64,000 nucleotides of DNA from Pseudoxanthomonas suwonensis (GCA_003240695.1 QFNC01000009.1:31471-95470), one strand, 5' to 3'. Shown: positions 1,407 to 38,427, counted from the first letter of the stretch. The notes: generated by a model not told the origin, from the sequence alone. Translations and numbers: made by a program.

Positions 1407-1450
1407 CCCGGGATTATGGCCCGCGCCGGGGGCAGCCGGGTGAGCGGCGA

Positions 1451-6395: not shown

Positions 6396-6397
6396 CG

Positions 6398-8729: not shown

Positions 8730-8743
<14 letters not shown>
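7928..8743 (-). CDS. pilF: Type IV pilus biogenesis/stability TPR lipoprotein PilF (PilW)
   Basis: Lipobox TTAC with multiple TPR repeats. Located between rlmN and rodZ, as in Xanthomonadaceae and Pseudomonas. Confidence 0.8.
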
Positions 8744-9959
<1,216 letters not shown>

Positions 9960-15207: not shown

Positions 15208-17078
15208 CCGGCGCCCAGTGCCATGGCCACGCGGTAGGTGATGAACGCGGCGAGATAGGCCATGCCAAACAGATAACCGGTGGCGATGGCCACCTGCTTC
15301 CACGAATGCGTTTCGCGCCGGATGGTGGCCAGGGTGGAAATGCACTGCGGCGCGTAGATGAACCACACCAGCAGCGACAAGGCGGTGGCCAGCGACCAGT
15401 CGGCGGCCAGGATCGGTTTCAGCGCCTCGGTGGCGGCGGCCTCGTCGGTCACCGACAGGGCATACACCGTGGCCAGCGATGACACTGCCACTTCGCGCGC
15501 GGCCATGCCCGGCACCAGCGCGATGCTGATCTGCCAGTTGAATCCCAGTGGTGCAAAGACTGCAGCCAGTACGTGACCGATGCGGCCGGCGAAGCTGTAA
15601 TCGATGGCCGGTCCGGTGAAATCCGGCGGCGGCGCGGGGAATGTCAGCAGAAACCACAGCAGCACGGTCAGCGCCAGAATGATGCCACCCACGCGCTTGA
15701 GGAAGATCATCGCCCGCTCCCACAGGCCGATCAGCAGATCGCGCGGATGCGGCACGCGGTACGAGGGCAATTCCAGCAGCAGCAAGTGCTCGCTCCGGTC
15801 GCGCCGCCACAGTTTCATCATCCACGACACCAGCAGGGCGCTGACGATGCCGGCCATGTACAGCCCGAACAGCACCAGGCCCTGCAGATTCAAGATTCCG
15901 GCGACCTGTCGCTGCGGGATGAAGGCGCCGATCAGCAGTGCGTACACCGGCAGCCGCGCCGAGCAGGTCATCAGCGGCGCCACCAGGATGGTGGCCAGGC
16001 GGTCGCGGGGATCGTGGATGGAGCGTGTGGCCATGATGCCGGGCACCGCGCACGCGAAACTGGACAGCAGCGGAATGAACGACCGTCCGGACAATCCCGC
16101 ACTGGCCATCAACCGGTCCAGCAGGAATGCAGCACGCGGCAGATAACCGCTTTCCTCCAACGCCAGAATGAAGGCGAACAGGATCAGGATCTGCGGCAGG
16201 AAGATCACCACCCCGCCCAACCCTGCGATCACCCCATCCACCAGCAGGCTTTGCAAAGGCCCCTCGGGCAGCCAACTGCCCACCTGACCACCCAGCCAGC
16301 CGGTTCCGGCCTCGATCAGGTCCATCAGCGGCGTGGCCCAGGCGAACACCGCCTGGAAGATCAGGAACATCACCACAGCCAGCGCCAGAATGCCGACGAC
16401 CGGATGCAGCAGCCAGCGGTCCAGGGCATCGTCGATGCGCGACGCTTCGGCAGGCGTGGACACGGCCAATGCCATCAGCCGGCGTGTTTCGGCATGCAGA
16501 TCCATTGGCGATGCCGCTTCTCCGGGCTGCGGCAGCGGCAACGTGCGTGCCCGCTCCAGCTGCTGTTCGATGCACTCGATCAGCGCCTGCGCGCCGCCGC
16601 TGCGCACGGCCACGGTCTCCACCACCGGCATGCCCAGTTCGCGCTGCAGCAATGCGGCATCGATGCGGATGCCGCGGCGTTCGGCCACGTCGGCCTGGTT
16701 CAGCGCCACCACCATCGGCCGGCCGAGCGCGCGCAACTCCAGCACGAAACGCAGGTGCAGGCGCAGGTTGGTGGCATCCACCACGCACACCAGCAGGTCC
16801 GGGACCGGTTCGCCGGGATAGAAGCCGCGGCACACGTCGCGTGCGATGGCTTCCTCCAGGCTGGCCGGCTGCAGGCTGTACGCACCGGGCAGATCCAGCA
16901 CCGCATAACTGCGGCCGGACGCTGTCTGCAGGCGGCCTTCCTTGCGCTCCACGGTCACGCCGGTGTAGTTGGCCACCTTCTGCCGGCTGCCGGTCAACTG
17001 GTTGAACAGCGCCGTCTTGCCGCTGTTGGGATTGCCGATCAGGGCCAGCCTGGGCACGGGTGAGACATCCGCCGTCAC
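15204..17078 (-). CDS. feoB: Ferrous iron transporter FeoB (N-terminal G-protein + membrane permease)
   Basis: G-domain GNPNSGKTALFNQLTG...DLPG, then a polytopic membrane domain, 624 aa. Confidence 0.95.
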   Translation of the reverse strand: MTADVSPVPRLALIGNPNSGKTALFNQLTGSRQKVANYTGVTVERKEGRLQTASGRSYAVLDLPGAYSLQPASLEEAIARDVCRGFYPGEPVPDLLVCVVDATNLRLHLRFVLELRALGRPMVVALNQADVAERRGIRIDAALLQRELGMPVVETVAVRSGGAQALIECIEQQLERARTLPLPQPGEAASPMDLHAETRRLMALAVSTPAEASRIDDALDRWLLHPVVGILALAVVMFLIFQAVFAWATPLMDLIEAGTGWLGGQVGSWLPEGPLQSLLVDGVIAGLGGVVIFLPQILILFAFILALEESGYLPRAAFLLDRLMASAGLSGRSFIPLLSSFACAVPGIMATRSIHDPRDRLATILVAPLMTCSARLPVYALLIGAFIPQRQVAGILNLQGLVLFGLYMAGIVSALLVSWMMKLWRRDRSEHLLLLELPSYRVPHPRDLLIGLWERAMIFLKRVGGIILALTVLLWFLLTFPAPPPDFTGPAIDYSFAGRIGHVLAAVFAPLGFNWQISIALVPGMAAREVAVSSLATVYALSVTDEAAATEALKPILAADWSLATALSLLVWFIYAPQCISTLATIRRETHSWKQVAIATGYLFGMAYLAAFITYRVAMALGAG

Positions 17079-17327
17079 GACCCGTCTCCGATGTCCAGCG
17101 TCACCTGCACGCGCGCCGCTTCGCTGCGCCGCAACGCGAACCGCGTGTTGCCGATCTGCACCAGCAAGGGTTCCGCCCCGAACGGTCCGGCGGCGGTCAC
17201 CTTCACGGATTCGCCGGCAACGAACCCCAGTTCGCCCAGACGGCGGGCGATGCCGTCGTTGTCGCCGGTGGCGGTCACCTCATCCACGATGGCCGGACGG
17301 TGGCGAGGAAGCTCGGTCAGGTTCACG
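17075..17327 (-). CDS. feoA: Ferrous iron transport protein FeoA (GTG start)
   Basis: C-terminal ~84 codons of the over-extended track ORF 17075-18655 have a FeoA SH3-like sequence (LTELPRHRPAIVDEV...IGNTRFALRRSEAARVQV). GTG at 17325-17327. Overlaps the feoB start. Confidence 0.75.
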
Positions 17328-17365
17328 TCGCGCGGAAAATAGGAATGGTTCTCAATTGTAGCACC
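17328..17365 (-). promoter_or_regulatory. AT-rich island upstream of feoA: candidate promoter / degenerate Fur box
   Basis: GCTACAATTGAGAACCATTCCTATTTTCC (minus-strand sense) is the only AT-rich patch in a ~70% GC context, directly 5' of feoA. The hexamer pattern GAGAAC/CATTCC/TATTTT is loosely Fur-box-like. fur is encoded in the window. Confidence 0.35.
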
Positions 17366-17414
17366 ACCGTGCCCTGCATGAGTTGCGGGTGCCACGGCGT
17401 TTATGATGGGTCGA

Positions 17415-18220
17415 TGACCGATCGCATCCTGCCCTCCGCCCTGCGCGACAGCCTGCAACTGGACCTTGCCGACCAGGTCGCCACGTTGCGGCTGAATCGC
17501 CCGCAGCTGCACAACGCCTTCGACGATGGACTGATCGATGCCCTGACCGGCTGCCTGCAACGTCTGGGCGCGGATGCCGACATCAGGGCGGTGGTGCTGG
17601 CCGGCAACGGCGCGTCGTTTTCCGCTGGCGCCGATCTGCACTGGATGCAGCGCATGGCCGCGGCAGACGAAGCCGAAAACCGTCGCGATGCGCTTGCGCT
17701 GGCCCGGTTGATGCGGGTGCTGGATGAACTGCCCAAACCCACCGTTGCCCGCGTGCATGGTGCAGCGTTCGGCGGCGGCGTGGGCCTGATCGCCTGCTGC
17801 GACATCGCCATCGGCGTGCCCGAAGCCCGGTTCGGCCTGACCGAAGCCCGACTGGGCCTGCTGCCGGCGGTGATTTCGCCCTACGTGATCCGCGCCATCG
17901 GCAGCCGCAGCGCGCGCCGCTACTTCGCCACGGCAGAGCGCTTCGACGCATCCGAAGCCCTGCGCATCGGCCTGCTGCATCAGGTGGTGGATGCCGCACA
18001 GCTGGATGCCGCCGTGCAGCGACAGCTCGATCTGCTGCGCAAGGCCGGGCCGCTGGCCACTGCAAGTGCCAAGCAACTCGTGCGCGATGTGCTCGCCCAT
18101 GCTGACACCGATCGCCATGATGCCGACAACGCTGCGTTGATCGCGCGCCTGCGCGTTTCGCCTGAGGGACAGGAAGGCATCGGCGCGTTCCTTGAGAAGC
18201 GGCCCGCGGCGTGGCAATAG
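17415..18220 (+). CDS. liuC: Enoyl-CoA hydratase family, probable methylglutaconyl-CoA hydratase
   Basis: Crotonase fold (AGNGASFSAGADL...FGGGVGL). Context: followed by MCCase alpha and HMG-CoA lyase. Confidence 0.7.
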
Positions 18221-18256
18221 AATGAATCCGACCCAATCCCTCGCATCGCCATCGCC

Positions 18257-18793
18257 ATGACCACCGAAACCTACCGCATCGACATCAACCGCACCAAGAT
18301 CGTCCTGTCCGTCATCGTCCTGTTCGCGCTGGCAATAGGCTCGATATGGATGTGGATGCGCGGCCCTTCTCCGGATGCCGTGTTTCCGTTGCACCGCAGC
18401 CCCACAGCGCATCTGATCACGAGCATCTGCGGTGTCGTGTTCGGGATCGGCTTCGGTGCCCTCGGGCTGCGCAGGCTGATGACCAGCGAACCACCCTTGA
18501 TGCTCAACCCGCAGGCCTTGTACATGAACATCGACGGCTTCCGAATCCCCTGGACCGACATCGAGGCGATCGAGTCGGTCGAGCACGACGCCGGGCCGGG
18601 CTATGTCGTGCGGCTGAAGAATCCGCAGAAGTTCCTGGACGAGCATGCCGATCATCGCAACGCCCGTGCGCTGAAGGAAGCCAACTGGACGCTCGGTACG
18701 CCCATCGTGTTCTACATTTCCGGATTGAACATGGACCGGGAGAAGTTCGAGCGCGTGGCTACCGGATACATGGCTCGCGCCGCCAACGAGTGA
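18257..18793 (+). CDS. Hypothetical small membrane protein (2 predicted TM) inserted between liuC and liuD
   Basis: 178 aa. TM1 is IVLSVIVLFALAIGSIWMW and TM2 is LITSICGVVFGIGFGALGL. No recognisable family. Somewhat lower GC than its neighbours. Confidence 0.5.
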   Translation: MTTETYRIDINRTKIVLSVIVLFALAIGSIWMWMRGPSPDAVFPLHRSPTAHLITSICGVVFGIGFGALGLRRLMTSEPPLMLNPQALYMNIDGFRIPWTDIEAIESVEHDAGPGYVVRLKNPQKFLDEHADHRNARALKEANWTLGTPIVFYISGLNMDREKFERVATGYMARAANE

Positions 18794-18795
18794 AC

Positions 18796-20820
18796 ATGTT
18801 CGCCTCCATCCTCATCGCCAACCGCGGCGAAATCGCCTGCCGCATCATCCGCACCTGTCGCCGGCTGGGCATCCGCACCATCGCGGTGTACTCGCAGGCC
18901 GATGCCGATGCACAGCACGTGCGCCTGGCCGATGCGGCCTACCCCATCGGTGGGCCACGCCCGCAGGACAGCTACCTGCGCGGCGATGCGATCCTGCAGG
19001 CCGCCCGGGACAGCGGCGCGCAGGCCATCCATCCCGGTTACGGATTCCTCAGCGAAAACGCCGACTTTGCCGAGGCGGTCGAAGCCGCCGGCCTGGTGTT
19101 CATCGGACCAAGCTCCGCCAGCATGCGCGCGATGGGCAGCAAGGCCGGCGCCAAGGAACTGATGGCCGCCGCCGGCGTGCCGGTGGTGCCGGGCTACACC
19201 GGCCAGGACCAGTCGCTGGCCACGCTGCAGCGCGAGGCCGACCGCATCGGCTACCCGTTGATGATCAAGGCCGCGCACGGTGGAGGCGGCAAGGGCATGC
19301 GCATCGTGCGCGAGGCAGCCGAATTCGCGGCGAACCTGGAAAGCTGCCAGCGCGAGGCCGCCAACGCCTTCGGCCGCGACCGGGTGCTGCTGGAACGCTA
19401 CATCGAGCAGCCGCGCCACATCGAGATCCAGATCTTCGGCGACCATCACGGCGGCCTAATCCATCTGAACGAGCGCGAATGCTCGGCGCAACGGCGCTAC
19501 CAGAAGGTGCTGGAGGAATCCCCTTCCCCGTTCCTCACCCCCGAACTGCGCCAGGCCATGGGCGCGGCCGGCGTGCTGGCGGGCCAGGCGATCGACTACG
19601 CCAATGCCGGTACGGTGGAATTCATCGTCGGCCAGGACGGCCGGTTCTATTTGATGGAAATCAACACCCGCTTGCAGGTGGAACATCCGGTCACCGAGCT
19701 GGTGTCCGGCCTGGATCTGGTGGAATGGCAGCTGCGCGTGGCCGCGGGGGAACCACTGCCGCTGCGGCAGGAGCAGATCGCGCAGCACGGCCATGCCATC
19801 GAAGTGCGCCTGTATGCCGAAGACCCGGAAGCCGGCTTCCTGCCCGGTTCGGGCGTGCTGACCCGGCTGCGGCTGCCGCAGCCGTCCGCACACGTACGCG
19901 TGGATGCCGGCGTGATGGAAGGCGACACGGTCAGCATCTTCTACGATCCGATGATCGCCAAGCTCATCGTGCACGACGCTGACCGGCCACGCGCCCTGGC
20001 ACGCCTGCGCGAGGCGCTGATGCACACCGAGGTGCAGGGGCCGAAATCGAACATCGCCTTCCTGGAACGCCTGGTGCGGCACCCGGCAGTCGTGGAAGGC
20101 CGCATCGACACCGGGTTTCTCGACCGCCATCCGGACCTGGGCGCAGCCGATGCCGCGGAAGCCGGTATCGATGCACGCGTTGCCGCAGCGGCCGTGGTGC
20201 AGCTGCTGCGCCAGGAAGCCATGCAGGCTGCCACCGCTGCACAGTCGGACGATCCGATCTCGCCGTGGCGCCTGGCCGATGGCTGGCGCCTGAGCGGTGA
20301 AGGCCGGCGGCAGCTGGCTTTCGAGATCGGCAGGCGCGTGGTGAACCTGCAGGCAGCGGGCAGCAACGGACGCTATCGGCTGCACGCGGACGGCCGCGAC
20401 GTCCAGGTGGATGGCGCACATCTGGCCGACGGCTGGCTTGGCCTGCGCATGGATGGCGTGGCCCGACGGTTTCGCGTGGGTGGCGACGACGATACCCTGA
20501 TCGTGCACGATGGCGAGCGGCGTCTGCTGCTGCATCCGCGCCCGGTGTACAAGCCTGCGGCACAGGCCGTGGCTGGAGGCGATGATCGGATCACCGCACC
20601 GATGCCCGGACGAGTGGTGGTGGTGAAGGTCCAGCCGGGTGATACTGTCGGCATTGGCCAGGAACTGCTGGTGCTGGAGGCGATGAAGATGGAATTGAGC
20701 CTGAAATCCCCACGCGACGGCATCGTGGCCGAGGTGCGTGCAGCCGAGGGCGATTTCGCGGATGCGGATGCGGCGCTGGTGCTGCTGGAACAGCCGAATC
20801 ACGCAGGAGACGCCCCATGA
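18796..20820 (+). CDS. liuD: Methylcrotonyl-CoA carboxylase alpha subunit (biotin carboxylase + biotinyl domain)
   Basis: ATP-grasp biotin-carboxylase domain (MFASILIANRGEIACRIIRT...), C-terminal biotinyl motif EAMKME. ATG at 18796 is in frame within track ORF 18346-20820. Confidence 0.85.
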   Translation: MFASILIANRGEIACRIIRTCRRLGIRTIAVYSQADADAQHVRLADAAYPIGGPRPQDSYLRGDAILQAARDSGAQAIHPGYGFLSENADFAEAVEAAGLVFIGPSSASMRAMGSKAGAKELMAAAGVPVVPGYTGQDQSLATLQREADRIGYPLMIKAAHGGGGKGMRIVREAAEFAANLESCQREAANAFGRDRVLLERYIEQPRHIEIQIFGDHHGGLIHLNERECSAQRRYQKVLEESPSPFLTPELRQAMGAAGVLAGQAIDYANAGTVEFIVGQDGRFYLMEINTRLQVEHPVTELVSGLDLVEWQLRVAAGEPLPLRQEQIAQHGHAIEVRLYAEDPEAGFLPGSGVLTRLRLPQPSAHVRVDAGVMEGDTVSIFYDPMIAKLIVHDADRPRALARLREALMHTEVQGPKSNIAFLERLVRHPAVVEGRIDTGFLDRHPDLGAADAAEAGIDARVAAAAVVQLLRQEAMQAATAAQSDDPISPWRLADGWRLSGEGRRQLAFEIGRRVVNLQAAGSNGRYRLHADGRDVQVDGAHLADGWLGLRMDGVARRFRVGGDDDTLIVHDGERRLLLHPRPVYKPAAQAVAGGDDRITAPMPGRVVVVKVQPGDTVGIGQELLVLEAMKMELSLKSPRDGIVAEVRAAEGDFADADAALVLLEQPNHAGDAP

Positions 20821-21710
20821 TCGACCACGTCCACATCGTCGAAGTCGCCCCGCGCGACGGCCTGCAGAACGTGTCGGCCACGGTTCCGGCGGCGGTGAAG
20901 GTCGAACTGATCGACCGCCTCGGTGCCTGCGGTCTTCGGACTATCGAGGCGACCAGTTTCGTCAGCCCGAAGTGGGTGCCGCAACTGGCCGATGCCGCCG
21001 AGGTGTATGCCGGCATCCGCAAGCTGCGCGACGTGCGCTATCCGGTGCTGGTCCCCAATCTGCAGGGCTATCAGCGTGCTCGTGCGGCCGGCGCGTCCGA
21101 CGTCGCCGTGTTCACCGCCGCCTCGGAAACCTTCAACCAGCGCAACACCAATGCCGGCATCGACGAATCGATCAGTCGTTTCCGGCCGGTGCTGGATGCC
21201 GCCAAGGCCGACGGCGTGTCGGTGCGCGGTTACGTGTCCACCGTGCTGGGCTGTCCTTACCAGGGCGCGGTGGCGGTCGGCGACGTGGTGCGCGTGGCGA
21301 AGGCCCTGTTCGATCTGGGTTGCAGCGACATCTCGCTGGGCGACACCATCGGCGTCGGCACCCCGCGCCAGGCAGCCGCGATGTTGCGCGCCGTGGCGAC
21401 CGAAGTGCCGATGCGAGCCTTGGCCGTGCATTTCCACGACACCTGGGGCCAGGCACTGGCCAACATCCTGGCCTGTCTGGACGAGGGCGTGCGCGCCGTG
21501 GACTGCAGCGTGGCCGGCACCGGTGGTTGCCCGTATGCGAAGGGTGCATCGGGCAATGTCGCCACCGAGGACGTGGTGTACATGCTGCATGGCATGGGCA
21601 TGGGCACCGGCGTCGATCTGTCGGCACTGGCACAGACCGGGCAATGGCTCAGCGAAACACTGGGGCGTGCCAATGGCAGTCGCACCGGTATGGCCATGGC
21701 TGCCGCATGA
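20817..21710 (+). CDS. liuE: Hydroxymethylglutaryl-CoA lyase
   Basis: HMGL-like TIM-barrel motifs (VEVAPRDGLQN, HFHDTWGQALAN). Overlaps the liuD stop. Confidence 0.9.
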   Translation: MIDHVHIVEVAPRDGLQNVSATVPAAVKVELIDRLGACGLRTIEATSFVSPKWVPQLADAAEVYAGIRKLRDVRYPVLVPNLQGYQRARAAGASDVAVFTAASETFNQRNTNAGIDESISRFRPVLDAAKADGVSVRGYVSTVLGCPYQGAVAVGDVVRVAKALFDLGCSDISLGDTIGVGTPRQAAAMLRAVATEVPMRALAVHFHDTWGQALANILACLDEGVRAVDCSVAGTGGCPYAKGASGNVATEDVVYMLHGMGMGTGVDLSALAQTGQWLSETLGRANGSRTGMAMAAA

Positions 21711-24280
21711 GCAAGGCGCCGATCGATGCGGCTGCGGCGCGCCGGCAATTGCTGCTGTCGCTGCGCCAAGGCGCACGCGATCCGTCCCTGCCCGGCGCCC
21801 TCCGCCAGCAGCTGCGCGCAGCTGCCCGCCAGTTGCGCCGCGAACGTCTGGCCGTGCGGGACGAACGGCGGCGCTATGCCGCCCTGTTCCATGCGGTGCC
21901 TGACCCGATCAGCATCATCGCTGCCGATGGCACGCTGCTGGACGTGAATGCCGCCACCATGCAGGCCTACCAGCGTCCGCGCAGCGAACTGGTGGGACAG
22001 CATCTGCACGTGCTCAACCCTGACCTTCCGCGCGACCACATGCGTCCGGTACTCGATCGTCTCCGCCAGGGCGGCAGCCACGTGGTTGAAACCACCAACC
22101 TGCGTGCCGACGGCAACCGGTTTCCGGTCGAAGTGCATTCCGCATGGCTCGATTGGCATGGGCAGCGGGCGGTGATTGCCGTGGCCCGCGACCTGAGCAT
22201 GCGACAGCAGGCCGACCTGCGCTTCCGGCAGGTGTTCGAAGCCATCGACAAGGGCATGGTGGCACGGGGAATCGACGGGTCCGCCTCGTACGCCAACGCG
22301 GCTGCCTTGCGTATCCTCGGCGCGCCCGCAGACCAGGATCTGACTGCGTATCTCTCCCAGTCCGACTGGAGTTTTCTGGACGAACGCGGCAAGCCCATCG
22401 CCGAGGAGAATTCGCCGCCCGTGCGCGCCCTGCGCACCGGCCAGATCATTCCGAGCACCGTGTACGGCCTGGTCCATCGTCCCAGCAAGCGTCTGCGGTG
22501 GCTGTCGACCACCACGGTGCCAGTCTTCACTCCGGGCAGCCACAAGCCGCACCAGGTGATCTGGATGTTCAGCGACGTGACCGCGCTGAAGCGCGACAGC
22601 GCGCTGTTCGACCGTGCCCAGGCGCTGGCCCACATCGGCGGCTGGGAATGGGAGCCGGGCAGCGATGCGCTGTATCTGACCGAGGAATCGGGCCGCATCC
22701 TCGGCCAGCCGCAGCGACCGGCCAGCATGCAGGCGTTCCTGGCGTGCCTGCGCAAACCCGATGCGGAGCGCCTGCACGAGGCGTTGCAGGTGGCCGCCAG
22801 CCATGGCGTGGGCATTGATCTGGAACTGCAGGGCCTGCGCGGCGATGGCCGATCGTTCTGGATCCGCATCCTCGGCCAGCCCGACGCGACCGACGCCGGC
22901 ATGCACCGCATCGCCGGCACCCTGCAGGACATCCTCGAAGGCAAGCAGGCCGAACAGACCCTGCGCATCCAGGCCCGCACCGATCCGCTGACCGGGTTGC
23001 TGAACCGCGATGCCATCCTGCGCGAACTGCACGTGCGCCTGCAGGACAGTGCCAGCTGCCGGCTGGCGGTGCTGTACATCGATCTGGACCGGTTCAAGAC
23101 CGTCAACGACGTGCTCGGCCACGGGGCCGGCGACACCTTGCTGTACAGCGCGGCGCAGCGCATCGTCGATGCCGTGGGCAACGAGGGACTGGTGGCGCGG
23201 CTGGGCGGCGACGAATTCTTGGTGGTCTGCAACCACGGCGACGATGCCGCCCGCCCGGAACGTCTGGCCGACGCGGTGCTGAACGGCTTCCGCGACAGCT
23301 TCCGTTTCGGCAGGGAGGAGTTTCCGGTCACCGCCAGCATCGGCATCGCCAGGGCACCCGAGCACGCCATGCAGGCGCAAACGCTGATCCAGAATGCCGA
23401 TGCCGCGATGTACGCCAGCAAGCGCCGCATGCGCAATGGCTGGATGGTCTACCAGCCTGACATGGCCCATGACCAGCACCAGTCGCTGCAGATGGAAACG
23501 CATCTGCGGCACGCCGTGGAAAACGACGAATTCCATCTGGTGTACCAGCCGCAGGTCGATCTGCGCAGCGGCCGCACCAACGGTGCCGAGGCGCTGATCC
23601 GCTGGCGCAATCGCAAGCTGGGCGAGATGCGCCCCGACCACTTCATCGCCCTCGCCGAAAGCAACGGTGACATCGTGCACATCGGCAACTGGGTGCTGCG
23701 CGCCGCCTGCAGGCAGATCGCTGCCTGGCGCGCAGCCGGTCTGGGCCAGGTGCGGATTGCGGTCAACGTGTCGTATCGTCAGTTCCTGGCGGCCGATTTG
23801 CCGGCCATCGTGCAGGAGCTGCTGCACCAGTTCGATCTGCCAGGCGAAGCACTGGAACTCGAATTCACCGAACGCACGCTGATCGAGGATGCACCGGAAA
23901 CCCTGCAGGCGTTCAAGCGGTTGCGGGCGATGGGCATCGCGCTGGCCATCGACGATTTCGGCGAAGGCTACAGTGCCCTGAACTATTTGCGCCGACTGCC
24001 GATCCAGGGGCTGAAACTGAGCAGCCTGTTCGTGCAGGGCATCCCGGCGAACCGGTCGGACATGGCGGTGTGCAAGGCTGTGGCCAGCATCGCGGACAGC
24101 CTGGAATTGGATCTGGTTGCCGAAGGCATCGAAACCGAGGAGCAGCGGCAGCATCTTCTGGATCTCGGTGTTCGCAAGGGTCAGGGCTTCCTGTTCTCGC
24201 CAGGTTTGCTGGCCGACGACTTCGCGCAGCGCCTGCTGGACGAGGCCGTTGCCGTCGCGGCACAGGCGCAGGCCGGCTGA
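21707..24280 (+). CDS. Cytoplasmic PAS-PAS-GGDEF-EAL c-di-GMP turnover protein
   Basis: 857 aa. Two or three PAS/PAC regions are followed by a GGDEF domain with intact RLGGDEF and an EAL domain with intact EALIRW, DDFGEGYS and EGIETEE. ATG at 21707 overlaps the liuE stop (ATGA). The upstream part of track ORF 20738-24280 is the same frame read through liuE. Confidence 0.9.
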   Translation: MSKAPIDAAAARRQLLLSLRQGARDPSLPGALRQQLRAAARQLRRERLAVRDERRRYAALFHAVPDPISIIAADGTLLDVNAATMQAYQRPRSELVGQHLHVLNPDLPRDHMRPVLDRLRQGGSHVVETTNLRADGNRFPVEVHSAWLDWHGQRAVIAVARDLSMRQQADLRFRQVFEAIDKGMVARGIDGSASYANAAALRILGAPADQDLTAYLSQSDWSFLDERGKPIAEENSPPVRALRTGQIIPSTVYGLVHRPSKRLRWLSTTTVPVFTPGSHKPHQVIWMFSDVTALKRDSALFDRAQALAHIGGWEWEPGSDALYLTEESGRILGQPQRPASMQAFLACLRKPDAERLHEALQVAASHGVGIDLELQGLRGDGRSFWIRILGQPDATDAGMHRIAGTLQDILEGKQAEQTLRIQARTDPLTGLLNRDAILRELHVRLQDSASCRLAVLYIDLDRFKTVNDVLGHGAGDTLLYSAAQRIVDAVGNEGLVARLGGDEFLVVCNHGDDAARPERLADAVLNGFRDSFRFGREEFPVTASIGIARAPEHAMQAQTLIQNADAAMYASKRRMRNGWMVYQPDMAHDQHQSLQMETHLRHAVENDEFHLVYQPQVDLRSGRTNGAEALIRWRNRKLGEMRPDHFIALAESNGDIVHIGNWVLRAACRQIAAWRAAGLGQVRIAVNVSYRQFLAADLPAIVQELLHQFDLPGEALELEFTERTLIEDAPETLQAFKRLRAMGIALAIDDFGEGYSALNYLRRLPIQGLKLSSLFVQGIPANRSDMAVCKAVASIADSLELDLVAEGIETEEQRQHLLDLGVRKGQGFLFSPGLLADDFAQRLLDEAVAVAAQAQAG

Positions 24281-24777
24281 TGGCCGATCCGGCGACGCCA
24301 TGGCGGATCCGCCCCATCCGCAGCGACGACGATGCCGCCATCGCCGCGATCATTCGCACGGTGATGCCCGAATTCGGTGCCGGTGGCTGCGGATTCGCCA
24401 TACACGATGCCGAAGTGGACGGCATGGCTGCCGCCTATGCGCAGCCGCGCCATGCCTACTTCGTCCTGGAACGCGACAGCCGCGTGCTGGGTGGCGGCGG
24501 CATCGCACCGCTGGCGGGCGGCGATGCGGACATTTGCGAGCTGCGCAAGATGTACTTCCTGCCCGAGGCGCGCGGACTGGGTGCCGGCAGCGCGATGATG
24601 CAGCACTGCCTGCAGGCGGCGCGCGCAACCGGCTTCGTCCGCTGTTACCTGGAAACGCTGAGCGGCATGGATGCGGCGATGCGCCTGTACGAACGCAGCG
24701 GCTTCCTGCGCATCGATGGTCCGATGGGTGCGACCGGGCACGGTGGCTGCAACACCTTCTACCTGCGCGCGCTGTAG
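24280..24777 (+). CDS. GNAT-family N-acetyltransferase
   Basis: 165 aa with acetyl-CoA motif (ARGLGAGSAMMQHCLQAA). ATG overlaps the upstream stop (TGATGG). Confidence 0.8.
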   Translation: MADPATPWRIRPIRSDDDAAIAAIIRTVMPEFGAGGCGFAIHDAEVDGMAAAYAQPRHAYFVLERDSRVLGGGGIAPLAGGDADICELRKMYFLPEARGLGAGSAMMQHCLQAARATGFVRCYLETLSGMDAAMRLYERSGFLRIDGPMGATGHGGCNTFYLRAL

Positions 24778-24829
24778 CGCTGGACAGCACAGCCGTACGC
24801 TAGAATCCCGCTTTTCCGCGGAGAATTCC

Positions 24830-25600
24830 ATGCAACTGCGCGATGTGCGAGCGGTGATCACCGGTGGCGTGTCCGGACTGGGCCTGGCAGTGGCCCGGCA
24901 TCTGGTGGCCCATGGCGGCCGGGTGGCGCTGTTCGACATCAATGCCGACAAGGGCGCCGCGGCGGTAGCCGAACTGGGCGAGGCGCATGCGCACTTCTTC
25001 GCCACCGATGTCACCAGCGAGGCCGACGTGGCCGCCAACGCCCAGGCCGCCCGCGACGTGATGGGCAGCATAACCGTGTGCGTGAACTGCGCCGGCATCC
25101 TCGGCGCCGGACGCGTGCTGGGCAAGACCGGCCCGATGGCGCTGATGCAGTTCCAGACCACGGTGCTGGTGAATCTGGTCGGCAGTTTCAACGTGGCCAA
25201 GGCCTGTGCCGATGCGATGCAACACAATCCGCCCGGCATCGATGGCGAGCGCGGCGTGATCGTCAACACCGCCTCGATCGCCGGTTACGAAGGCCAGATC
25301 GGACAGGCCGCCTATTCCGCCAGCAAGGCCGGCATCATCGGCATGACCCTGCCGATGGCCCGGGAACTGGCCCGCTTCGGCATCCGCGTCAACACCATCG
25401 CGCCGGGCATCTTCCTGACCCCGATGGCCGAAGGCATGCCCGAGGACGTGCAGGCGGCGCTGGCGGCATCGATTCCTTTCCCGTCGCGGCTGGGTGACCC
25501 GGCGCAGTTCGCCGACCTGGTCGGCTACATCGCGCAGAACACCTACATCAACGGCGAAACCATCCGCCTGGACGGTGCCACGCGCCTGTCGCCGAAGTAA
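24830..25600 (+). CDS. Short-chain dehydrogenase, 3-hydroxyacyl-CoA dehydrogenase type-2 (HSD17B10/FadB2x-like)
   Basis: TGGVSGLG Rossmann motif and catalytic YSASK. High similarity to 3-hydroxy-2-methylbutyryl-CoA dehydrogenases. Confidence 0.85.
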   Translation: MQLRDVRAVITGGVSGLGLAVARHLVAHGGRVALFDINADKGAAAVAELGEAHAHFFATDVTSEADVAANAQAARDVMGSITVCVNCAGILGAGRVLGKTGPMALMQFQTTVLVNLVGSFNVAKACADAMQHNPPGIDGERGVIVNTASIAGYEGQIGQAAYSASKAGIIGMTLPMARELARFGIRVNTIAPGIFLTPMAEGMPEDVQAALAASIPFPSRLGDPAQFADLVGYIAQNTYINGETIRLDGATRLSPK

Positions 25601-25633
25601 CCCGACACTCCATTCCCGCATCCGGATTCCGCA

Positions 25634-26200
25634 ATGAAGGCTTACGATATCAAGAAAGGCAACGTGGTCGAACACGCCGCCGGCGTGTACCAGATCCGCG
25701 ACATCGAGCGCAGTTCGCCGCAAGGCCGCGGCGGCAACGTCCGTTACCGCTTCACCATGTACTCGGTGCCCGGCGGCAACAAGCTGGATGCCAGTTTCGA
25801 CGGCGACGACGACCTGAAGGAAGTCGACATGGCCCGCCGTCAGGCCAGTTTTTCATACAAGGACGGCGAGGCCTTCGTGTTCATGGACGACGAGGATTTC
25901 ACCCCCTACACGCTCGATGCTGACACCATCGGCGATGCGGCCGGCTACATCACCGACGGCTTGGGCGGCTGCTATGTGCAGCTGATCGACGACGCCCCGG
26001 TGGCCCTGCAGCTGCCGCAGTCGGTGGTGCTGGAAATCGTCGACACCCCACCGGAGCTGAAGGGCGGCACCGCCACCAAGCGCCCGAAGCCGGCGCGGCT
26101 GAATACCGGCATCGAAATCCAGGTGCCGGAATACATCGCCAACGGCGAACGGGTATGGGTGAACACCACCACCGGCGAGTTCGGCGGGCGCGCGGATTGA
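25634..26200 (+). CDS. efpL: Elongation factor P-like protein EfpL (YeiP)
   Basis: 188 aa. Strong similarity to E. coli YeiP across the whole length, including the C-terminal [11 protein letters not shown]...GRAD. Confidence 0.9.
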
Positions 26201-26249
26201 GTCGAATCGGCGGGTCCGGGGGCGATGAATCTCATCGGCCGATCCGGAT

Positions 26250-27635
26250 TCAATCGAACAGCTTGCCTGGATTCATCACGCCGTTCGGATCGAAGACCCC
26301 CTTCACCTCACGCATCAACGCGATTTCCGCAGCGCTGCGGGTGCCCTGCAGGTAAGGCTTCTTCACCAAGCCGATGCCGTGCTCGGCGGAAATGCTGCCG
26401 CCGTGGCGCTGCAGGGCCTCGCTGAGCAGTTCGGTCACGCGTTCGCAGTCGCGCACGAAATCGGCCTGCGGCAGTTCCGCCGGTTTCAGCACGTTGATGT
26501 GCAGGTTGCCGTCGCCGATGTGGCCGAACCACACCACCTCGAACTGCGGGTATTCGCGCGCAAGCAGTGCCTGCGCGTCCTCCAGCAGCGCCGGCATCGC
26601 CGACAGGCGAACCGACACGTCGTTCTTGTATGGCAGGTGCGGCGCCAATGCTTCGGTGATGCCTTCGCGCAGCCGCCACAGCTGCGCCGCCTGCGCATCG
26701 CTCTGGCTGATCGCGCCATCCAGCACGAGACCCTGCTCCACGCAGGCTTCGAATGCCGACAACGCGGCGGCTTCGTCGCTATCCACAGCTGCGTCAAAAT
26801 CGGCAATCGCGTAGAAGGGATAGTCCTCGGCGAACGGCGCCTGCCCGCCATGCGCCAGCACGTGCCGCAGCGCGCGGTCGGTGAAGAATTCGAAGGCCTG
26901 CAGCGACAGCCGCGTGCGCAACTGCGCGAACACCTGCAAGACCGAGACGAAATCCGGCAAGGCCAGCAGCAGCGTGCGTGCCGGCGGTGCCGGATCGGTC
27001 AGGCGCACGCTAGCCGCGACCACGATACCCAGTGTCCCTTCGGAGGCGATGGCCAGATGGCGGAAGTCGTAGCCGCTGGAGTTCTTGATCAAACCCCGAT
27101 TCAATTCCAGCACCTCGCCGGAACCGGTGACCAGGGTCAGTCCGGCGATCCATTCGCGGGTGTTTCCGTAGCGCAGCACGCGGATGCCGCCGGCGTTGGT
27201 GGCGATGTTGCCGCCGAGGGTGCAGGACCCGCGCGAGGCGAAATCGACCGGGTACTGCAGGCCATGTTCGCGCGCCGCCTGCTGCAACGCTTCCAGGGTG
27301 ATGCCGGCCTGCACGGTCAGGGTGCGATCGACGGGATCAAACTCCAGCACGCGGTTCAGTTTCTGCAGACTCACGACCAGTTCGCCATTCGCAGCCACGG
27401 CACCGCCGGACAATCCGGTACGTCCACCGGACGGCACCAAGCCGACATGGTGTTCATTGGCCCAATGCACGATGCCGACCACCTCCTCCACGCTGGCCGG
27501 AAAGGCCACTGCCAGCGGTGCCGGCGCCCAGCGACGGGTCCAGTCGCGCCCGTGGAATTCGAGATCGCCCGGATCCGTCGACACCCGCAGCGATGGCAGG
27601 CGATGGCGCAGGTCGTCCAGGCGGGGATCGGTCAT
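26250..27635 (-). CDS. FAD-linked oxidase (GlcD/D-lactate dehydrogenase family); probable D-2-hydroxyglutarate dehydrogenase
   Basis: N-terminal FAD-binding PCMH domain (VVGIVHWANEHHVGLVPSGGRTGLSGGAV) and a C-terminal FAD-oxidase_C domain. Start MTDPRLD at 27635. The 917-aa track ORF is this gene fused to the antisense of serA. Divergent from serA. Confidence 0.85.
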   Translation of the reverse strand: MTDPRLDDLRHRLPSLRVSTDPGDLEFHGRDWTRRWAPAPLAVAFPASVEEVVGIVHWANEHHVGLVPSGGRTGLSGGAVAANGELVVSLQKLNRVLEFDPVDRTLTVQAGITLEALQQAAREHGLQYPVDFASRGSCTLGGNIATNAGGIRVLRYGNTREWIAGLTLVTGSGEVLELNRGLIKNSSGYDFRHLAIASEGTLGIVVAASVRLTDPAPPARTLLLALPDFVSVLQVFAQLRTRLSLQAFEFFTDRALRHVLAHGGQAPFAEDYPFYAIADFDAAVDSDEAAALSAFEACVEQGLVLDGAISQSDAQAAQLWRLREGITEALAPHLPYKNDVSVRLSAMPALLEDAQALLAREYPQFEVVWFGHIGDGNLHINVLKPAELPQADFVRDCERVTELLSEALQRHGGSISAEHGIGLVKKPYLQGTRSAAEIALMREVKGVFDPNGVMNPGKLFD

Positions 27636-27737
27636 CGGGATGTCGGCGTGCGGGGGCGAGCCACAGCCTACCCCACCCTGCCACCGCGCACACCGGCGAG
27701 AGGGCACAATGCATGTCCCCGCGTTCCGGAGCCGGCA

Positions 27738-28976
27738 TTGGCCCCCGTCACCTCGTTCCCCAAATCCGACATCCGCGTGCTGCTGCTGGAAGGCATCAGC
27801 ACCAGCGCGGTCGATGCCTTCCGCGCCACCGGTTACAGCCAGATCCGCACCTTCGACAAGTCGCCGCCGCCGGAGCAGCTGCGCCAGGAACTGGCCGAGG
27901 CGCATCTGCTCGGCATCCGCTCGCGCACGCAATTGACCGCCGAGCTGCTGGACGAGGCCCGCAAGCTGATCGCGGTGGGCTGCTTCTGCATCGGCACCAA
28001 CCAGGTCGATCTGGAAGCGGCACGGCTGCGCGGCGTGCCTGTGTTCAATGCACCGTATTCCAACACCCGCAGCGTGGCCGAACTGGTCATCGCCGAGGCC
28101 GTCCTGCTGATGCGCGGCATCCCGGCGAAATCGATGCAATGCCATCGCGGTGGCTGGTCGAAGTCGGCTGCCGGCAGCCACGAGGTGCGCGGCAAGACCA
28201 TCGGCATCGTCGGCTACGGCCACATCGGCACCCAGGTCGGCGTGCTGGCCGAAGCCTTGGGCATGCAGGTGTTGTTCCACGACGTGGAAACCAAGCTGTC
28301 GCTGGGCAACGCGCGATCCGCGGCCGACCTGGGCGAGCTGCTGGCCCGCAGCGACATCGTGACCCTGCACGTGCCGGAAACCCCGGCCACGCGGATGATG
28401 ATCGGCGCGGCGCAGTTCGCGGCGATGAAACCCGGGGTGCAGTTCATCAATGCCTCGCGCGGCACCGTGGTCGACATCGATGCGCTCACGGCCGCGCTGC
28501 AGTCTGGACACGTGGCGGGCGCGGCCGTCGACGTGTTCCCGGTGGAGCCGCAGGGCAATGCCGATGCGTTCGTCTCGCCGTTGTGCGGCATGGACAACGT
28601 GATCCTGACCCCGCACGTCGGCGGCAGCACGCTGGAAGCGCAGGACAACATCGGCCTGGAAGTGGCCACCAAGCTGATCCGCTATTCGGACAACGGCAGC
28701 ACCCTGTCGGCGGTCAATTTCCCCGAGGTCACCCTGCCCGAGCACCGCGGCAGCCACCGCTTCCTGCACATCCACCGCAACGTGCCCGGCGTGCTGTCGC
28801 GGATCAACGACATCTTTTCCAGCGCCGGCATCAACATCGACGGCCAGTACCTGCGCACCGACGCGCAGGTCGGTTACGTGGTGATCGATGCCGCTTCCGA
28901 CCACGCCCAGGCCACCCGGCTGCGGGAGCGGCTGGCGGCGATCGAGGGAACCCTGCGCACGCGGGTGCTGTACTGA
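27738..28976 (+). CDS. serA: D-3-phosphoglycerate dehydrogenase SerA (with C-terminal ACT domain), TTG start
   Basis: Aligns end-to-end with E. coli SerA (MAPVTSFPKSDIRVLLLEGIS vs MAKVSLEKDKIKFLLVEGVHQ) and has a C-terminal ACT domain. No in-frame ATG exists; the TTG at 27738 fits the alignment. Confidence 0.9.
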   Translation: MAPVTSFPKSDIRVLLLEGISTSAVDAFRATGYSQIRTFDKSPPPEQLRQELAEAHLLGIRSRTQLTAELLDEARKLIAVGCFCIGTNQVDLEAARLRGVPVFNAPYSNTRSVAELVIAEAVLLMRGIPAKSMQCHRGGWSKSAAGSHEVRGKTIGIVGYGHIGTQVGVLAEALGMQVLFHDVETKLSLGNARSAADLGELLARSDIVTLHVPETPATRMMIGAAQFAAMKPGVQFINASRGTVVDIDALTAALQSGHVAGAAVDVFPVEPQGNADAFVSPLCGMDNVILTPHVGGSTLEAQDNIGLEVATKLIRYSDNGSTLSAVNFPEVTLPEHRGSHRFLHIHRNVPGVLSRINDIFSSAGINIDGQYLRTDAQVGYVVIDAASDHAQATRLRERLAAIEGTLRTRVLY

Positions 28977-29008
28977 CCGCCCCGGTTTCCGACGAACGGC
29001 CACTCCAT

Positions 29009-29044
29009 CCTTTCATGTAAGCGTTAGCATGCTTACATGAAAGG
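29009..29044. promoter_or_regulatory. Perfect 14-bp inverted repeat (CCTTTCATGTAAGC-N8-GCTTACATGAAAGG) enclosing the start codon of the first gene of the psp/flotillin cluster
   Basis: Read directly from the sequence. The right arm contains the ATG at 29037-29039. There is no flanking T-run, so it is not a canonical terminator. Confidence 0.6.
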
Positions 29045-29681
29045 CGATCACCCACTCAGCCCCTCCACCCTGCACCAGCGCGCCTACCGCGAACGCATGC
29101 GCGAGGCCGGCCTGGTGAAGAAGGATGTGTGGATCCTGCCCGAATACGCCGAGGAGCTGGCCGGCATCGAAAAGGCGATGCGAGAATCCGGGCATGCGCT
29201 GTCCGTCTCGCATGCCCACACCGGTCCGCAGACGGCCTGGACCCTGGCCGCCATCGCCGACGCCATTGCCGCCACCGGCGCGGCGCGCAGCGGCTCGATC
29301 ACGCCGGAATGGATCGAAGGGGCCGATCCCAGCCTGCGGCTGCAGATGCACGACCACGGCGATCTGTCGGTGTTCGTGGCGGTCGGCCACCAGCAGATCG
29401 TGGTCGAGGCCTACCTGTGGCCAGTCAGCCATGTGGCCGACCCGGCCGCGTTCGATGCGCACGTGCTGACCACCCACAAGCTGTTGCCGCTGTCCACGGT
29501 CGGCATCGAGAACATCGGTGGCGTGCCCGGCTACACCATGTTCGGTTCGCTGGATGCGCAGTCCAGCCTGGCCAGCGTGCTGTTCGAGGTCCAAACCCTG
29601 GCCGACAACGTGCTGGATGCCAGCGAAGCCTGGCTGGACTACCTGAAACCCGAACATCGCCTCGCGGAGACAGCGGCATGA
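29037..29681 (+). CDS. Hypothetical protein, possibly YjfI/DUF2170-like (PspA-associated), with ~55-aa charged N-terminal extension
   Basis: 214 aa. The C-terminal 150 aa loosely resemble the YjfI family that precedes yjfJ (a PspA homologue) in enterobacteria. The assignment is tentative and rests partly on context, since a PspA-like gene follows and is translationally coupled. Confidence 0.5.
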   Translation: MKGDHPLSPSTLHQRAYRERMREAGLVKKDVWILPEYAEELAGIEKAMRESGHALSVSHAHTGPQTAWTLAAIADAIAATGAARSGSITPEWIEGADPSLRLQMHDHGDLSVFVAVGHQQIVVEAYLWPVSHVADPAAFDAHVLTTHKLLPLSTVGIENIGGVPGYTMFGSLDAQSSLASVLFEVQTLADNVLDASEAWLDYLKPEHRLAETAA

Positions 29682-30364
29682 GCCCGTTCAAGGATCTGCT
29701 CAAGCGCATGCAGGAGAGCATGGACGAGCTGGGCGACACCCTGTCGGGCACCAGCACGGCCGAACGCCTGCTGGATGCCGACATCCGGCAGCTGGATGCC
29801 CAGCTGCACGGCTGGCGTGGCGAAGCCGCCAGTCTCAAGGCGCGGCGCATCACCAGCGGCGAACGGCTGCGCGAACACGGCGCGCGTATCCGCCAACTCG
29901 AAGCCGATGCGCTGGATGCCCTGCGTGCGCGTCGCAAGACGGCCGCACGCGAACTGGCCGAAGGGATCGCCGCTGCGCAGGCGGCGAAGGCCGGGGAAAA
30001 GACCCGTCTGGACGATCTGCAAGCACACGAGAAGGCACTGCTGCATGTGATCGAACAGGGCGAATCGAAGCTGCGCCGGCTCAAGCACCAACTGGACACG
30101 TTGCGGGCCAGCGAAAGCCTGCAGCGGGCACAGGCCGCGGTAGCCAAACGCCAGCCCGATGCCGCACCGCATCCCGAATCGGCGGTGGCATCGGCGCAGC
30201 GGGTGCGGCAGCGCCGCACCCCGGGTAGCACCTCCTCCCCACGCACGGTGGCCAGCGCGAAGCCTCCGGCAGAGGCGATACTGGACAGGCTGGCAGCGCG
30301 TTTGGGCGCCGCCGATTCCGCCGCATCGCCACCCGCTCGCAAGCTCGCCAGGAGACGTTCATGA
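29678..30364 (+). CDS. PspA/IM30/Vipp1-family (ESCRT-III-like) coiled-coil protein, YjfJ-like
   Basis: 228 aa. N-terminal ~150 aa predicted as continuous amphipathic coiled coil with PspA-like heptads (LLDADIRQLDAQL...LKARR...). C-terminal low-complexity tail. ATG overlaps the upstream stop (ATGA). RBS GGAGA. Confidence 0.55.
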   Translation: MSPFKDLLKRMQESMDELGDTLSGTSTAERLLDADIRQLDAQLHGWRGEAASLKARRITSGERLREHGARIRQLEADALDALRARRKTAARELAEGIAAAQAAKAGEKTRLDDLQAHEKALLHVIEQGESKLRRLKHQLDTLRASESLQRAQAAVAKRQPDAAPHPESAVASAQRVRQRRTPGSTSSPRTVASAKPPAEAILDRLAARLGAADSAASPPARKLARRRS

Positions 30365-30999
30365 CCGAATTCCTGACCACCGCCCTCACCTTCCCCACCC
30401 TGGTCTGGAGCGTGCTGTTCGCGTTCTGCCTGTTCTACTGGATGCTGGCGGCCACCGGCCTGGTGGACATCGACCTCGACGTGGCCGATGCCAGCCTGTC
30501 GTTCGACACCGACGTGGGCGAAACCGGTGCCTCGGCGGGCATGCTGGCACGATTCGGGCTGGGTGGCGTGCCACTGATGCTGGCGCTTGTCATCCTCGCG
30601 TTCGTCAGCTGGGTCATCACCTATTTCGTGCATCTGCTGGTGCTGGCGGCACTGCCGGACATGCTGCGCTGGATCCTGGGCGCAGTCACGGCCGTCGGTG
30701 CCGTGATCCCCGGGGTGCTGGTGGCATCGCTGGTGCTGCGGCCGTTGCGCAAGCTGATCGCGAAACTGCGTCCACCGGTGCAGCCCTCGCTGCTCGGTCG
30801 GGTCGGCACCGTCACCACGCCAACGGTCGACGACACCCATGGCATGGCCGCATTCGACGACGGCGGCGCGGGACTCATCCTGCAGGTCCGCGCCCGCCCA
30901 CCGGACACCTTCAACCGCGGCGACCGGGTCGTGCTGCTGGAATACCAGACCGGCGACAATAGCTACCGCGTGATGTCCGAAGACCGCTTCAACCGCTGA
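30361..30999 (+). CDS. YqiJ/NfeD-like inner-membrane protein (3 TM + C-terminal OB-fold)
   Basis: Three N-terminal TM helices, then a C-terminal beta-rich segment (GRVGTVTTPTVDDTHGMAAFDDGGAGLILQVRARPP...RVVLLEY) typical of NfeD/YqiJ OB domains. Precedes a flotillin, as in the yqiJ-yqiK pair. ATGA overlap with the upstream gene. Confidence 0.65.
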   Translation: MTEFLTTALTFPTLVWSVLFAFCLFYWMLAATGLVDIDLDVADASLSFDTDVGETGASAGMLARFGLGGVPLMLALVILAFVSWVITYFVHLLVLAALPDMLRWILGAVTAVGAVIPGVLVASLVLRPLRKLIAKLRPPVQPSLLGRVGTVTTPTVDDTHGMAAFDDGGAGLILQVRARPPDTFNRGDRVVLLEYQTGDNSYRVMSEDRFNR

Positions 31000-31031
31000 A
31001 CCACCACACGTCAGTACAGGAGTCCTCCGAA

Positions 31032-32969: not shown

Positions 32970-32983
32970 CAATGCCGCTGCGT

Positions 32984-33009
32984 GGCCGGCGATGACCGCA
33001 TCGCCGGCC
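32984..33009. promoter_or_regulatory. Perfect 10-bp stem hairpin (GGCCGGCGAT-GACCGC-ATCGCCGGCC) between the flotillin and giant-ATPase genes
   Basis: Lies 15 nt after the flotillin stop and 42 nt before the next ATG. No T-run. Possible attenuator or RNA-processing site. Confidence 0.45.
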
Positions 33010-33050
33010 GTGTCCGTTGCACGATCCGCCCTGCGCTGGAGTGATTCCCG

Positions 33051-38408: not shown

Positions 38409-38427
38409 CGCGTGGCCATCGCCAGCC

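Follow-up and report, generated by a model that had tools for sequence, protein, structure and literature searches.

Background

The inputs of most GGDEF/EAL proteins are unknown, and finding them is the main open problem in cyclic di-GMP (c-di-GMP) signalling. A precedent for reading the input of a GGDEF-EAL protein from its operon context is nspS-mbaA of Vibrio cholerae, a two-gene unit in which MbaA is encoded together with its input protein, a periplasmic, ligand-binding partner that contacts it directly. RpfR, the receptor of the Burkholderia diffusible signal factor (BDSF) in Burkholderia and Cronobacter, is a PAS-GGDEF-EAL protein encoded beside the crotonase RpfF, and provides a precedent for a c-di-GMP phosphodiesterase controlled by a fatty acid. 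Here, a stretch of 64,000 nucleotides of Pseudoxanthomonas suwonensis (GCA_003240695.1 QFNC01000009.1:31471-95470; hereafter the window) is considered, in which a gene for a PAS-PAS-PAS-GGDEF-EAL protein (the c-di-GMP gene) begins within the end of liuE, which encodes the hydroxymethylglutaryl-CoA (HMG-CoA) lyase of leucine breakdown. An earlier note on this DNA, made from the sequence alone, had read the gene as part of an extended leucine-catabolic operon. It is found that one orthologous group of such proteins is locked to this last gene of leucine breakdown in ~76 species of several genera.

Results

Conservation of the junction with liuE

One genome per species was scanned with a profile built on the N-terminal sensor part, which is specific to the orthologues. 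Relatives were found in 486 species, and the best 80 were examined; this set consists of Luteimonas, Lysobacter, Pseudoxanthomonas, Thermomonas and others, with Xanthomonas proper and Lysobacter enzymogenes lying outside it. Luteimonas, Pseudoxanthomonas and Lysobacter have many full-length orthologues, at ~60% identity. The exact c-di-GMP protein of the window occurs otherwise on one short Logan contig only, and LiuE is 100% identical to a protein from a metagenome-assembled genome (MAG) named Pseudoxanthomonas suwonensis.

In 76 of the 80 species loci, liuE lies immediately upstream of the c-di-GMP gene. In 63 of these 76 loci the two genes share 4 nt, as ATGA or GTGA, and in the other thirteen they are separated by 1–39 nt. 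Gene-sized insertions occur between liuC and liuD (42/72), between liuD and liuE (24/73), and between the c-di-GMP gene and the following gene for a short-chain dehydrogenase/reductase (SDR; 39/75), but never between liuE and the c-di-GMP gene (0/76). The cluster accepts insertions everywhere except at this junction, which is its most stable feature. One 4-nt overlap is nothing unusual in an operon; the conservation of this one exceeds chance and goes well beyond the meaning of an ordinary overlap. The pairing of the two genes is real, and they are probably co-expressed. For example, the called genes of Luteimonas sp. R10 and Pseudoxanthomonas sp. SL93 read feoAB (opposite strand), liuC...liuD...liuE, PAS-GGDEF-EAL, SDR and efpL, with the 4-nt liuE overlap in place.

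The genes found in the liuC/liuD and liuD/liuE slots vary: an STM3941-family gene in the window (18257..18793), a glyoxalase in Pseudoxanthomonas SL93 and a GNAT in Luteimonas R10. Small-gene slots of this kind are seen in relatives at, for example, 6072..6473 of locus L003 and 8614..9078 of locus L002.

Downstream of the c-di-GMP gene, an orthologue of the GNAT gene of the window is present in 36 of ~79 loci, and the junction is an overlap in 27 of the 36. The position of the SDR gene is kept in all relatives and outgroups. In essentially all of these, it is adjacent to efpL (24830..26200 in the window; loci L002–L089), with a gap of more than 300 nt in only 4 of 71 loci. EfpL is reportedly regulated by lysine acylation (bioRxiv 10.1101/2024.04.15.589488), and for this reason the fixed position of efpL beside acyl-CoA enzymes and a GNAT may be meaningful.

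Three outgroup genomes have the backbone from liuE to SDR-efpL with no c-di-GMP gene in it. In Stenotrophomonas acidaminiphila, the order is liuC-liuE-DUF4189-SDR-efpL. In [Pseudomonas] boreopolis, liuC-liuE is followed by a hydrolase gene and a TetR gene on the other strand, and then by SDR-efpL. In Luteibacter, the order is liuD-liuE-GNAT-GNAT-GNAT-SDR-efpL, and the first GNAT, directly after liuE (an uncalled open reading frame at 9037..9504 of locus L085), is a 68%-identical orthologue of the GNAT in the window. In a MAG labelled Dokdonella, the c-di-GMP gene follows liuE at a distance of 30 nt. The distribution is most simply read as an insertion of the gene, between liuE and the GNAT gene, in an ancestor of the Luteimonas/Lysobacter/Pseudoxanthomonas group; the alternative is loss of the gene in the outgroups. 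Neither the liu genes nor the c-di-GMP gene strictly needs the other. The SDR, the GNAT and efpL are parts of an older backbone, present in the outgroups without the c-di-GMP gene; the earlier note had counted the SDR among the extensions of the operon.

The gene string in the window

The genes of the string and the region in front of it are as follows.

17327..17413: feoA/liuC divergent intergenic region, with a Fur-box-like sequence (~17337..17362) and a -10-like TATGAT (17402..17407)
17414..18220, + strand: liuC-like enoyl-CoA hydratase (methylglutaconyl-CoA hydratase type), 268 aa; Pfam ECH_1, E = 7e-49; first gene of the transcription unit
18257..18793, + strand: STM3941-family small membrane protein, 178 aa; NCBIfam NF041635, 62 bits against a cut-off of 40
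18796..20820, + strand: liuD, alpha (biotin) subunit of methylcrotonyl-CoA carboxylase (MCC), 674 aa; Pfam biotin carboxylase domains, BT_MCC_alpha and Biotin_lipoyl
20817..21710, + strand: liuE, HMG-CoA lyase, 297 aa; NCBIfam NF004283, 432 bits against a cut-off of 246; Pfam HMGL-like
21707..24280, + strand: c-di-GMP turnover protein, PAS-PAS-PAS-GGDEF-EAL, 857 aa; Pfam PAS/PAS_9/PAS_4/PAS_3, GGDEF and EAL
24280..24777, + strand: GNAT acetyltransferase, 165 aa; Pfam Acetyltransf_1
24830..25600, + strand: SDR of the type II (HSD10/HADH2-like) 3-hydroxyacyl-CoA dehydrogenase kind, 256 aa; Pfam adh_short and PDB matches
25634..26200, + strand: efpL (yeiP), elongation factor P paralogue; NCBIfam TIGR02178, 283 bits against a cut-off of 264; last same-strand gene of the string

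The stop codon of liuD and the start codon of liuE overlap in the ATGA at 20817. The 3' end of liuE reads ...GCCGC-ATGA, the ATG at 21707 opening the 858-codon frame of the c-di-GMP gene with an overlap of 4 nt. The c-di-GMP gene ends with the TGA at 24278–24280, and the TGATG at 24278–24282 gives a 1-nt overlap with the start of the GNAT gene. Both overlaps had been reported in the earlier note, and their coordinates were verified in the sequence. The SDR gene follows the GNAT gene after a spacer of 52 nt (24778..24829), with its start at 24830, again as reported; the title of that note, which had all junctions overlapping, does not hold for this one.

The best NCBIfam models for LiuC are those of the crotonase family and of gamma-carboxygeranoyl-CoA hydratase, both under the cut-off; the position of liuC is conserved among relatives. 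The SDR matches PDB entries 4o5o (E = 2e-79) and human 1u7t (E = 1.5e-72) over residues 2–255, and by this full-length similarity to solved members it is classified as a type II 3-hydroxyacyl-CoA dehydrogenase. Genes of acyl-CoA catabolism thus lie both upstream and downstream of the c-di-GMP gene. No solved relative was found for the GNAT of the window. Upstream of liuC, the opposite strand carries feoA, feoB and a DUF6587 gene, and efpL is followed by a convergent gene for an FAD-linked oxidase. The GC content is even throughout the region, and Rfam gives no riboswitch or other RNA inside the gene cluster.

The homologues of liuC, liuD and liuE are on one strand, with the STM3941-family gene between liuC and liuD. 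Among the scanned open reading frames of the window, neither a liuA (isovaleryl-CoA dehydrogenase) or other acyl-CoA dehydrogenase gene nor a MerR-type LiuR regulator was found, and liuB (MCC beta subunit; 53752..55359) lies ~33 kb from the unit, next to a bactofilin gene. The string is a partial liu operon, liuC-liuD-liuE, with liuA, liuB and liuR missing from the unit. The leucine-catabolic operon of the earlier note is thus to be narrowed: the c-di-GMP gene is embedded in a string for branched-chain acyl-CoA catabolism, but this string is not the complete pathway.

The pair liuB-bactofilin (53752..56055 in the window; 431..2865 of locus L002) is ~36 kb downstream of liuC here. In most relatives, it lies just upstream of the DUF6587-feoB-feoA cassette, within ~5 kb of liuC. 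Therefore, a rearrangement has split the genes of the two MCC subunits in this genome.

Transcription and translation signals

A consensus promoter scan of 17000..26500 gave no promoter-like site, including no sigma-70 promoter at feoA/liuC, and a terminator scan of the same range gave only intragenic terminator-like matches. A separate promoter and terminator between liuE and the c-di-GMP gene, which the earlier note had named as evidence against its reading, are absent from the scan, and there is no intergenic DNA between the two genes. In the last 30 codons of liuE, the synonymous variability (codon level, 74 sequences) is not below that in the rest of the gene, so that a conserved internal promoter is not indicated.

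Upstream of liuC, relatives have a conserved Fur-box-like sequence, AAATGGGAATTGTTCTCA, and a conserved -10-like sequence, GCTATCAT. In the window, TATGAT (17402..17407) lies 6 nt before the ATG of liuC. It is noted that this spacing (17402..17416) is that expected for a leaderless transcript, the motif being 25–45 nt from the start codon in relatives; the short spacing may be specific to this genome, or the liuC start codon may be a different one. Iron regulation of feoAB through the Fur-box-like sequence (17337..17362) could influence the divergent liuC promoter. A fur gene is present in the window at 56426..56968 (- strand).

The Shine-Dalgarno pairing energy in the window is -2.9 kcal/mol for the c-di-GMP gene, -7.4 for liuE and -6.6 for the SDR gene. 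The weak pairing before the c-di-GMP gene fits termination-reinitiation. Taken together, the sequence data strongly suggest that the c-di-GMP gene is co-transcribed and translationally coupled with liuE. Of the earlier claim of translational coupling within a catabolic operon, the overlap, the lack of a spacer and the conserved junction stand as observed, and the coupling itself is read from them.

Architecture and catalytic domains of the protein

The protein is predicted to be soluble, with an N-terminal helical hairpin, three PAS domains, a GGDEF domain and an EAL domain. An AlphaFold (AF2) model of residues 1–423 was made from an alignment of 45 sequences, with a mean predicted local distance difference test (pLDDT) of 82.9; it places the helical hairpin at residues 4–63 and PAS folds at 68–162, 183–290 and 310–408. 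The domains, all encoded on the + strand, are as follows.

21872..22207, + strand: PAS1, aa 56–167; Pfam PAS/PAS_9/PAS_4; best-conserved sensor domain
22247..22582, + strand: PAS2, aa 181–292; PAS fold in the AF2 model with strands in 183–290; least conserved PAS
22601..22936, + strand: PAS3, PAS_3 type, aa 299–410; Pfam PAS_3, AF2 model, and PDB 3mr0 at E = 1.5e-7
22976..23437, + strand: GGDEF domain, aa 424–577; Pfam E = 1e-38
23501..24202, + strand: EAL domain, aa 599–832; Pfam E = 4e-66

The mean identity of orthologues to the window residue is 0.68 in GGDEF, 0.67 in EAL, 0.61 in PAS1, 0.56 in PAS3, 0.46 in PAS2, and 0.21 in the N- and C-terminal tails. Both the GGDEF (aa 500–504) and EAL (aa 628–630) motifs are intact, as had been stated earlier. 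Across 81 orthologues, R498-x-GGDEF is invariant, and so is D459-L-D461-R-F-K-x-V-N467-D468, which contains the equivalents of PleD D327, N335 and D344 for Mg2+/GTP binding. In the stretch GH-x-x-GD that follows DLDRFKxVND, the D is nearly invariant (≥ 90%). The GGDEF domain has no RxxD I-site. The EAL set E628, R632, N687, E719, E722, D749, D750, K770, E806 and Q826 is likewise invariant in the 81 orthologues. Loop 6 of EAL reads DDFGEGYSA, with an invariant Glu where DFG(T/A)GYSS has Thr or Ala. Both catalytic domains look competent from these residues.

The closest solved chains to the catalytic half are 5m3c and MorA (4rnh), followed by DosP. The best NCBIfam models, all below the cut-off, are those of phosphodiesterases (DibA, PRK10060 and DosP), and orthologues are annotated in databases as "EAL domain-containing protein". 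A net phosphodiesterase is favoured, because the named families and solved proteins closest to it are those of phosphodiesterases or dual enzymes. By analogy with MorA, DosP, PdeR/YciR and DibA, we infer that its main activity would be that of a phosphodiesterase and that the GGDEF domain would bind GTP.

Other features of the window

A same-strand string at 29028..40205 (+ strand) consists of genes for a DUF2170 protein, a PspA/IM30-like protein, two proteins (256 and 668 aa) lacking a Pfam match, a DUF3686/AAA ATPase of 1787 aa and TelA, and looks like a conserved stress or membrane-associated cluster. A tmRNA gene (60988..61341, + strand; Rfam, 189 bits) lies ~2.4 kb from smpB (57990..58625, + strand), and a gene for a CHASE-PAS histidine kinase (58607..60976, - strand) lies between the two. 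In the region 26250..29020, very long open reading frames on both strands (917 aa on the - strand and 865 aa on the + strand) are artefacts that result from the high GC content. What the region really contains is a gene for a GlcD-like FAD oxidase (- strand, ~26250..27700) and one for a serA-like 2-hydroxyacid dehydrogenase carrying an ACT domain (+ strand, ~27.7..28.98 kb).

Discussion

It is considered fairly probable that the protein is a soluble c-di-GMP sensor enzyme that is co-expressed with liuCDE and whose level follows the distal leucine/isovalerate pathway. In the Luteimonas/Lysobacter/Pseudoxanthomonas/Thermomonas group, its gene lies inside an older string, liuC-liuD-liuE-(GNAT)-3-hydroxyacyl-CoA dehydrogenase-efpL. 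Transcription of the gene along with liuCDE would come from the promoter region that liuC has in common with the divergent feoAB, and its translation would depend on termination-reinitiation at the ATGA where liuE ends. With such co-transcription and reinitiation, the amount of the enzyme would track the expression of the distal leucine/isovalerate pathway, and its activity would then be set by the input to the PAS domains. If the net activity is that of a phosphodiesterase, c-di-GMP would fall when branched-chain acyl-CoA catabolism is switched on, and motile or dispersed behaviour would be favoured. It may be expected that the enzyme level rises with leucine/isovalerate catabolism, and that deletion of the gene alters c-di-GMP-dependent behaviour specifically under that condition. 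Of the earlier suggestion that c-di-GMP levels are tied to leucine/isovalerate, the part on co-expression with the liu genes is well supported by comparative genomics; the net direction of the activity and the physiological output are what we infer.

A stronger form of this reading, that the family is a dedicated sensor of leucine/iso-branched acyl-CoA flux or of an intermediate, driving c-di-GMP turnover through a PAS ligand or through contact with a liu enzyme or the GNAT, is distinctly improbable. If it is true, in Lysobacteraceae the supply of isovaleryl-CoA primer for iso-fatty acids and diffusible signal factor (DSF)-type signals would be linked to the decision between the motile and sessile states. 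A pathway intermediate acting as the PAS ligand would be a clear case of a central catabolic route feeding second-messenger control.

Several observations weigh against the co-expression reading, and some of them are those expected of a gene that landed in a permissive slot behind liuE in the ancestor of the clade and is read through from the liu promoter with no functional tie to leucine catabolism, an overlap being hard to separate once formed. The slot between liuE and the SDR gene is filled by other, unrelated genes in the three outgroup genomes, so that the c-di-GMP gene is dispensable for the pathway. In two Pseudoxanthomonas MAGs (loci L023 and L068), liuCDE has been lost and the gene stands immediately after feoA, and the function of the gene is therefore not strictly dependent on the pathway; at a further locus, L045, no liuC, liuD or liuE match is present upstream of the gene. 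Other slots of the cluster also accept unrelated genes (STM3941-family, glyoxalase and another GNAT). GGDEF/EAL genes are moreover abundant and are found in many genomic settings. Overlapping genes can hardly be pulled apart without damage to one of them, and part of the conservation may be inertia. In addition, the Shine-Dalgarno energies across species, in genomes that are GC-rich, failed to set the coupled gene apart from its neighbours, and, with both active sites intact, the sequence cannot give the net direction between synthesis and hydrolysis. However, a mere passenger is hard to reconcile with the lack of any insertion in 76 loci and with exact 4-nt overlaps in 63 of them across several genera, while the flanking junctions were repeatedly remodelled. 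The gene is also joined by overlapping junctions on both flanks, to liuE and to the GNAT gene. Moreover, in thirteen species the overlap has been exchanged for a short gap and the genes are still adjacent, which indicates that the junction can change and that the adjacency is nevertheless kept. A passenger gene of this kind is judged unlikely.

Two other explanations concern the input to the PAS domains. PAS1 might bind heme or flavin, as do FixL, DosP, AxPDEA1 and NifL, and the protein would then be an oxygen or redox sensor whose link to the liu genes is the respiratory demand of acyl-CoA oxidation rather than metabolite sensing. The best solved sequence relatives of PAS1 are indeed the heme domains of FixL (E = 3e-13 to 3e-8), and H111, at the start (N-cap) of the F-alpha helix in the model, is conserved in 80 of 81 orthologues. 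In the HMMER alignments, however, H111 falls one residue before the proximal His of FixL (His194/His200), which pairs with M112; the FG loop of FixL with the distal Arg (R220 in BjFixL) is deleted (4–5 residues); and the position equivalent to His214 of BjFixL is mostly Tyr in orthologues. PAS1 resembles the FixL heme-PAS only loosely. Foldseek places full-length DosP first for the sensor model, followed by LOV-PAS kinases, PpsR, NifL and MmoS, but the N-terminal region has no sequence match to the heme-PAS of DosP, and the fold matches of this predicted model are generic for tandem PAS domains and permit no inference on the ligand. A heme or flavin sensor is accordingly regarded as quite doubtful. 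Less probable still, and in fact very unlikely, is a sensor like RpfR, in which a PAS domain would bind isovalerate, an acyl-CoA intermediate or an iso-branched fatty acid of the DSF family and switch the EAL/GGDEF output, tying the supply of precursors for iso-fatty acids and DSF to c-di-GMP. The PAS-GGDEF-EAL order is that of RpfR, the gene is linked to liuC of the crotonase family and has acyl-CoA enzymes on both flanks, and leucine is the precursor of the iso-branched 11-methyl DSF signal in Xanthomonas (PMC4542539). Among PDB sequence matches to the N-terminal 423 residues at E ≤ 1, however, no fatty-acid-binding PAS was found, and an RpfF-interaction domain is lacking, the N-terminus being a poorly conserved helical hairpin.

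The finding that one enzyme of this kind is probably co-expressed with liuCDE is a conserved gene-order observation on an otherwise ordinary enzyme family, and nothing in it contradicts current understanding. A search of the literature on GGDEF/EAL proteins or c-di-GMP with methylcrotonyl-CoA, HMG-CoA lyase or leucine catabolism found nothing relevant, and the 2016 regulon paper does not mention Xanthomonadales. The published panels and reviews on the GGDEF-EAL proteins of Xanthomonas oryzae (XOC_1633 and the GEdpX series) give no neighbourhood data identifying an orthologue. LchP of Lysobacter enzymogenes was considered as an orthologue and rejected, as it is membrane-anchored, with a cytoplasmic fragment distinct from the full protein (PMC6182147). 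Within the searchable literature, the operon context of the c-di-GMP gene is unreported, and the protein is an ordinary PAS-GGDEF-EAL member.

Comparison with known systems

The order liuC, liuD, liuE is the same as in liuRABCDE of Pseudomonas aeruginosa, and in the window liuD and liuE overlap. In contrast to that operon, the unit here has no liuR, liuA or liuB, feoAB is located divergently upstream, and the string runs on into the c-di-GMP gene, the GNAT gene, the HSD10-type dehydrogenase gene and efpL.

Among the c-di-GMP enzymes, DosP (PdeO) of E. coli resembles the window protein in being a soluble tandem-PAS-GGDEF-EAL protein encoded in an operon (dosCP) with a meaningful partner; Foldseek ranks it first for the sensor region, and its sequence matches the catalytic half with E = 8e-68. 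DosP, however, contains two PAS domains, of which PAS-A carries a proven heme, and its GGDEF is degenerate, whereas the window protein has three PAS domains, no demonstrable heme-ligand pattern and an intact GGDEF, and its operon partner is a catabolic enzyme and not a cyclase. Among solved GGDEF-EAL tandems, MorA of P. aeruginosa and chain 5m3c ('diguanylate cyclase') come closest, at 318 and 305 bits, and both motifs are intact, as in dual-function enzymes. In contrast, MorA is a large membrane protein with other sensor modules and no linkage to catabolic genes.

The link to a gene of the crotonase superfamily and the domain order are common to RpfR and the window protein. Their PAS regions, however, have no detectable sequence relation, and the neighbour in the window is a catabolic hydratase in a carboxylase/lyase pathway rather than a signal synthase. 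Finally, where the partner of MbaA is a periplasmic protein in direct contact with it, the partners in the window are cytoplasmic enzymes with no known interaction; what the locus shares with nspS-mbaA is a GGDEF-EAL protein whose input may be read from the genes beside it.

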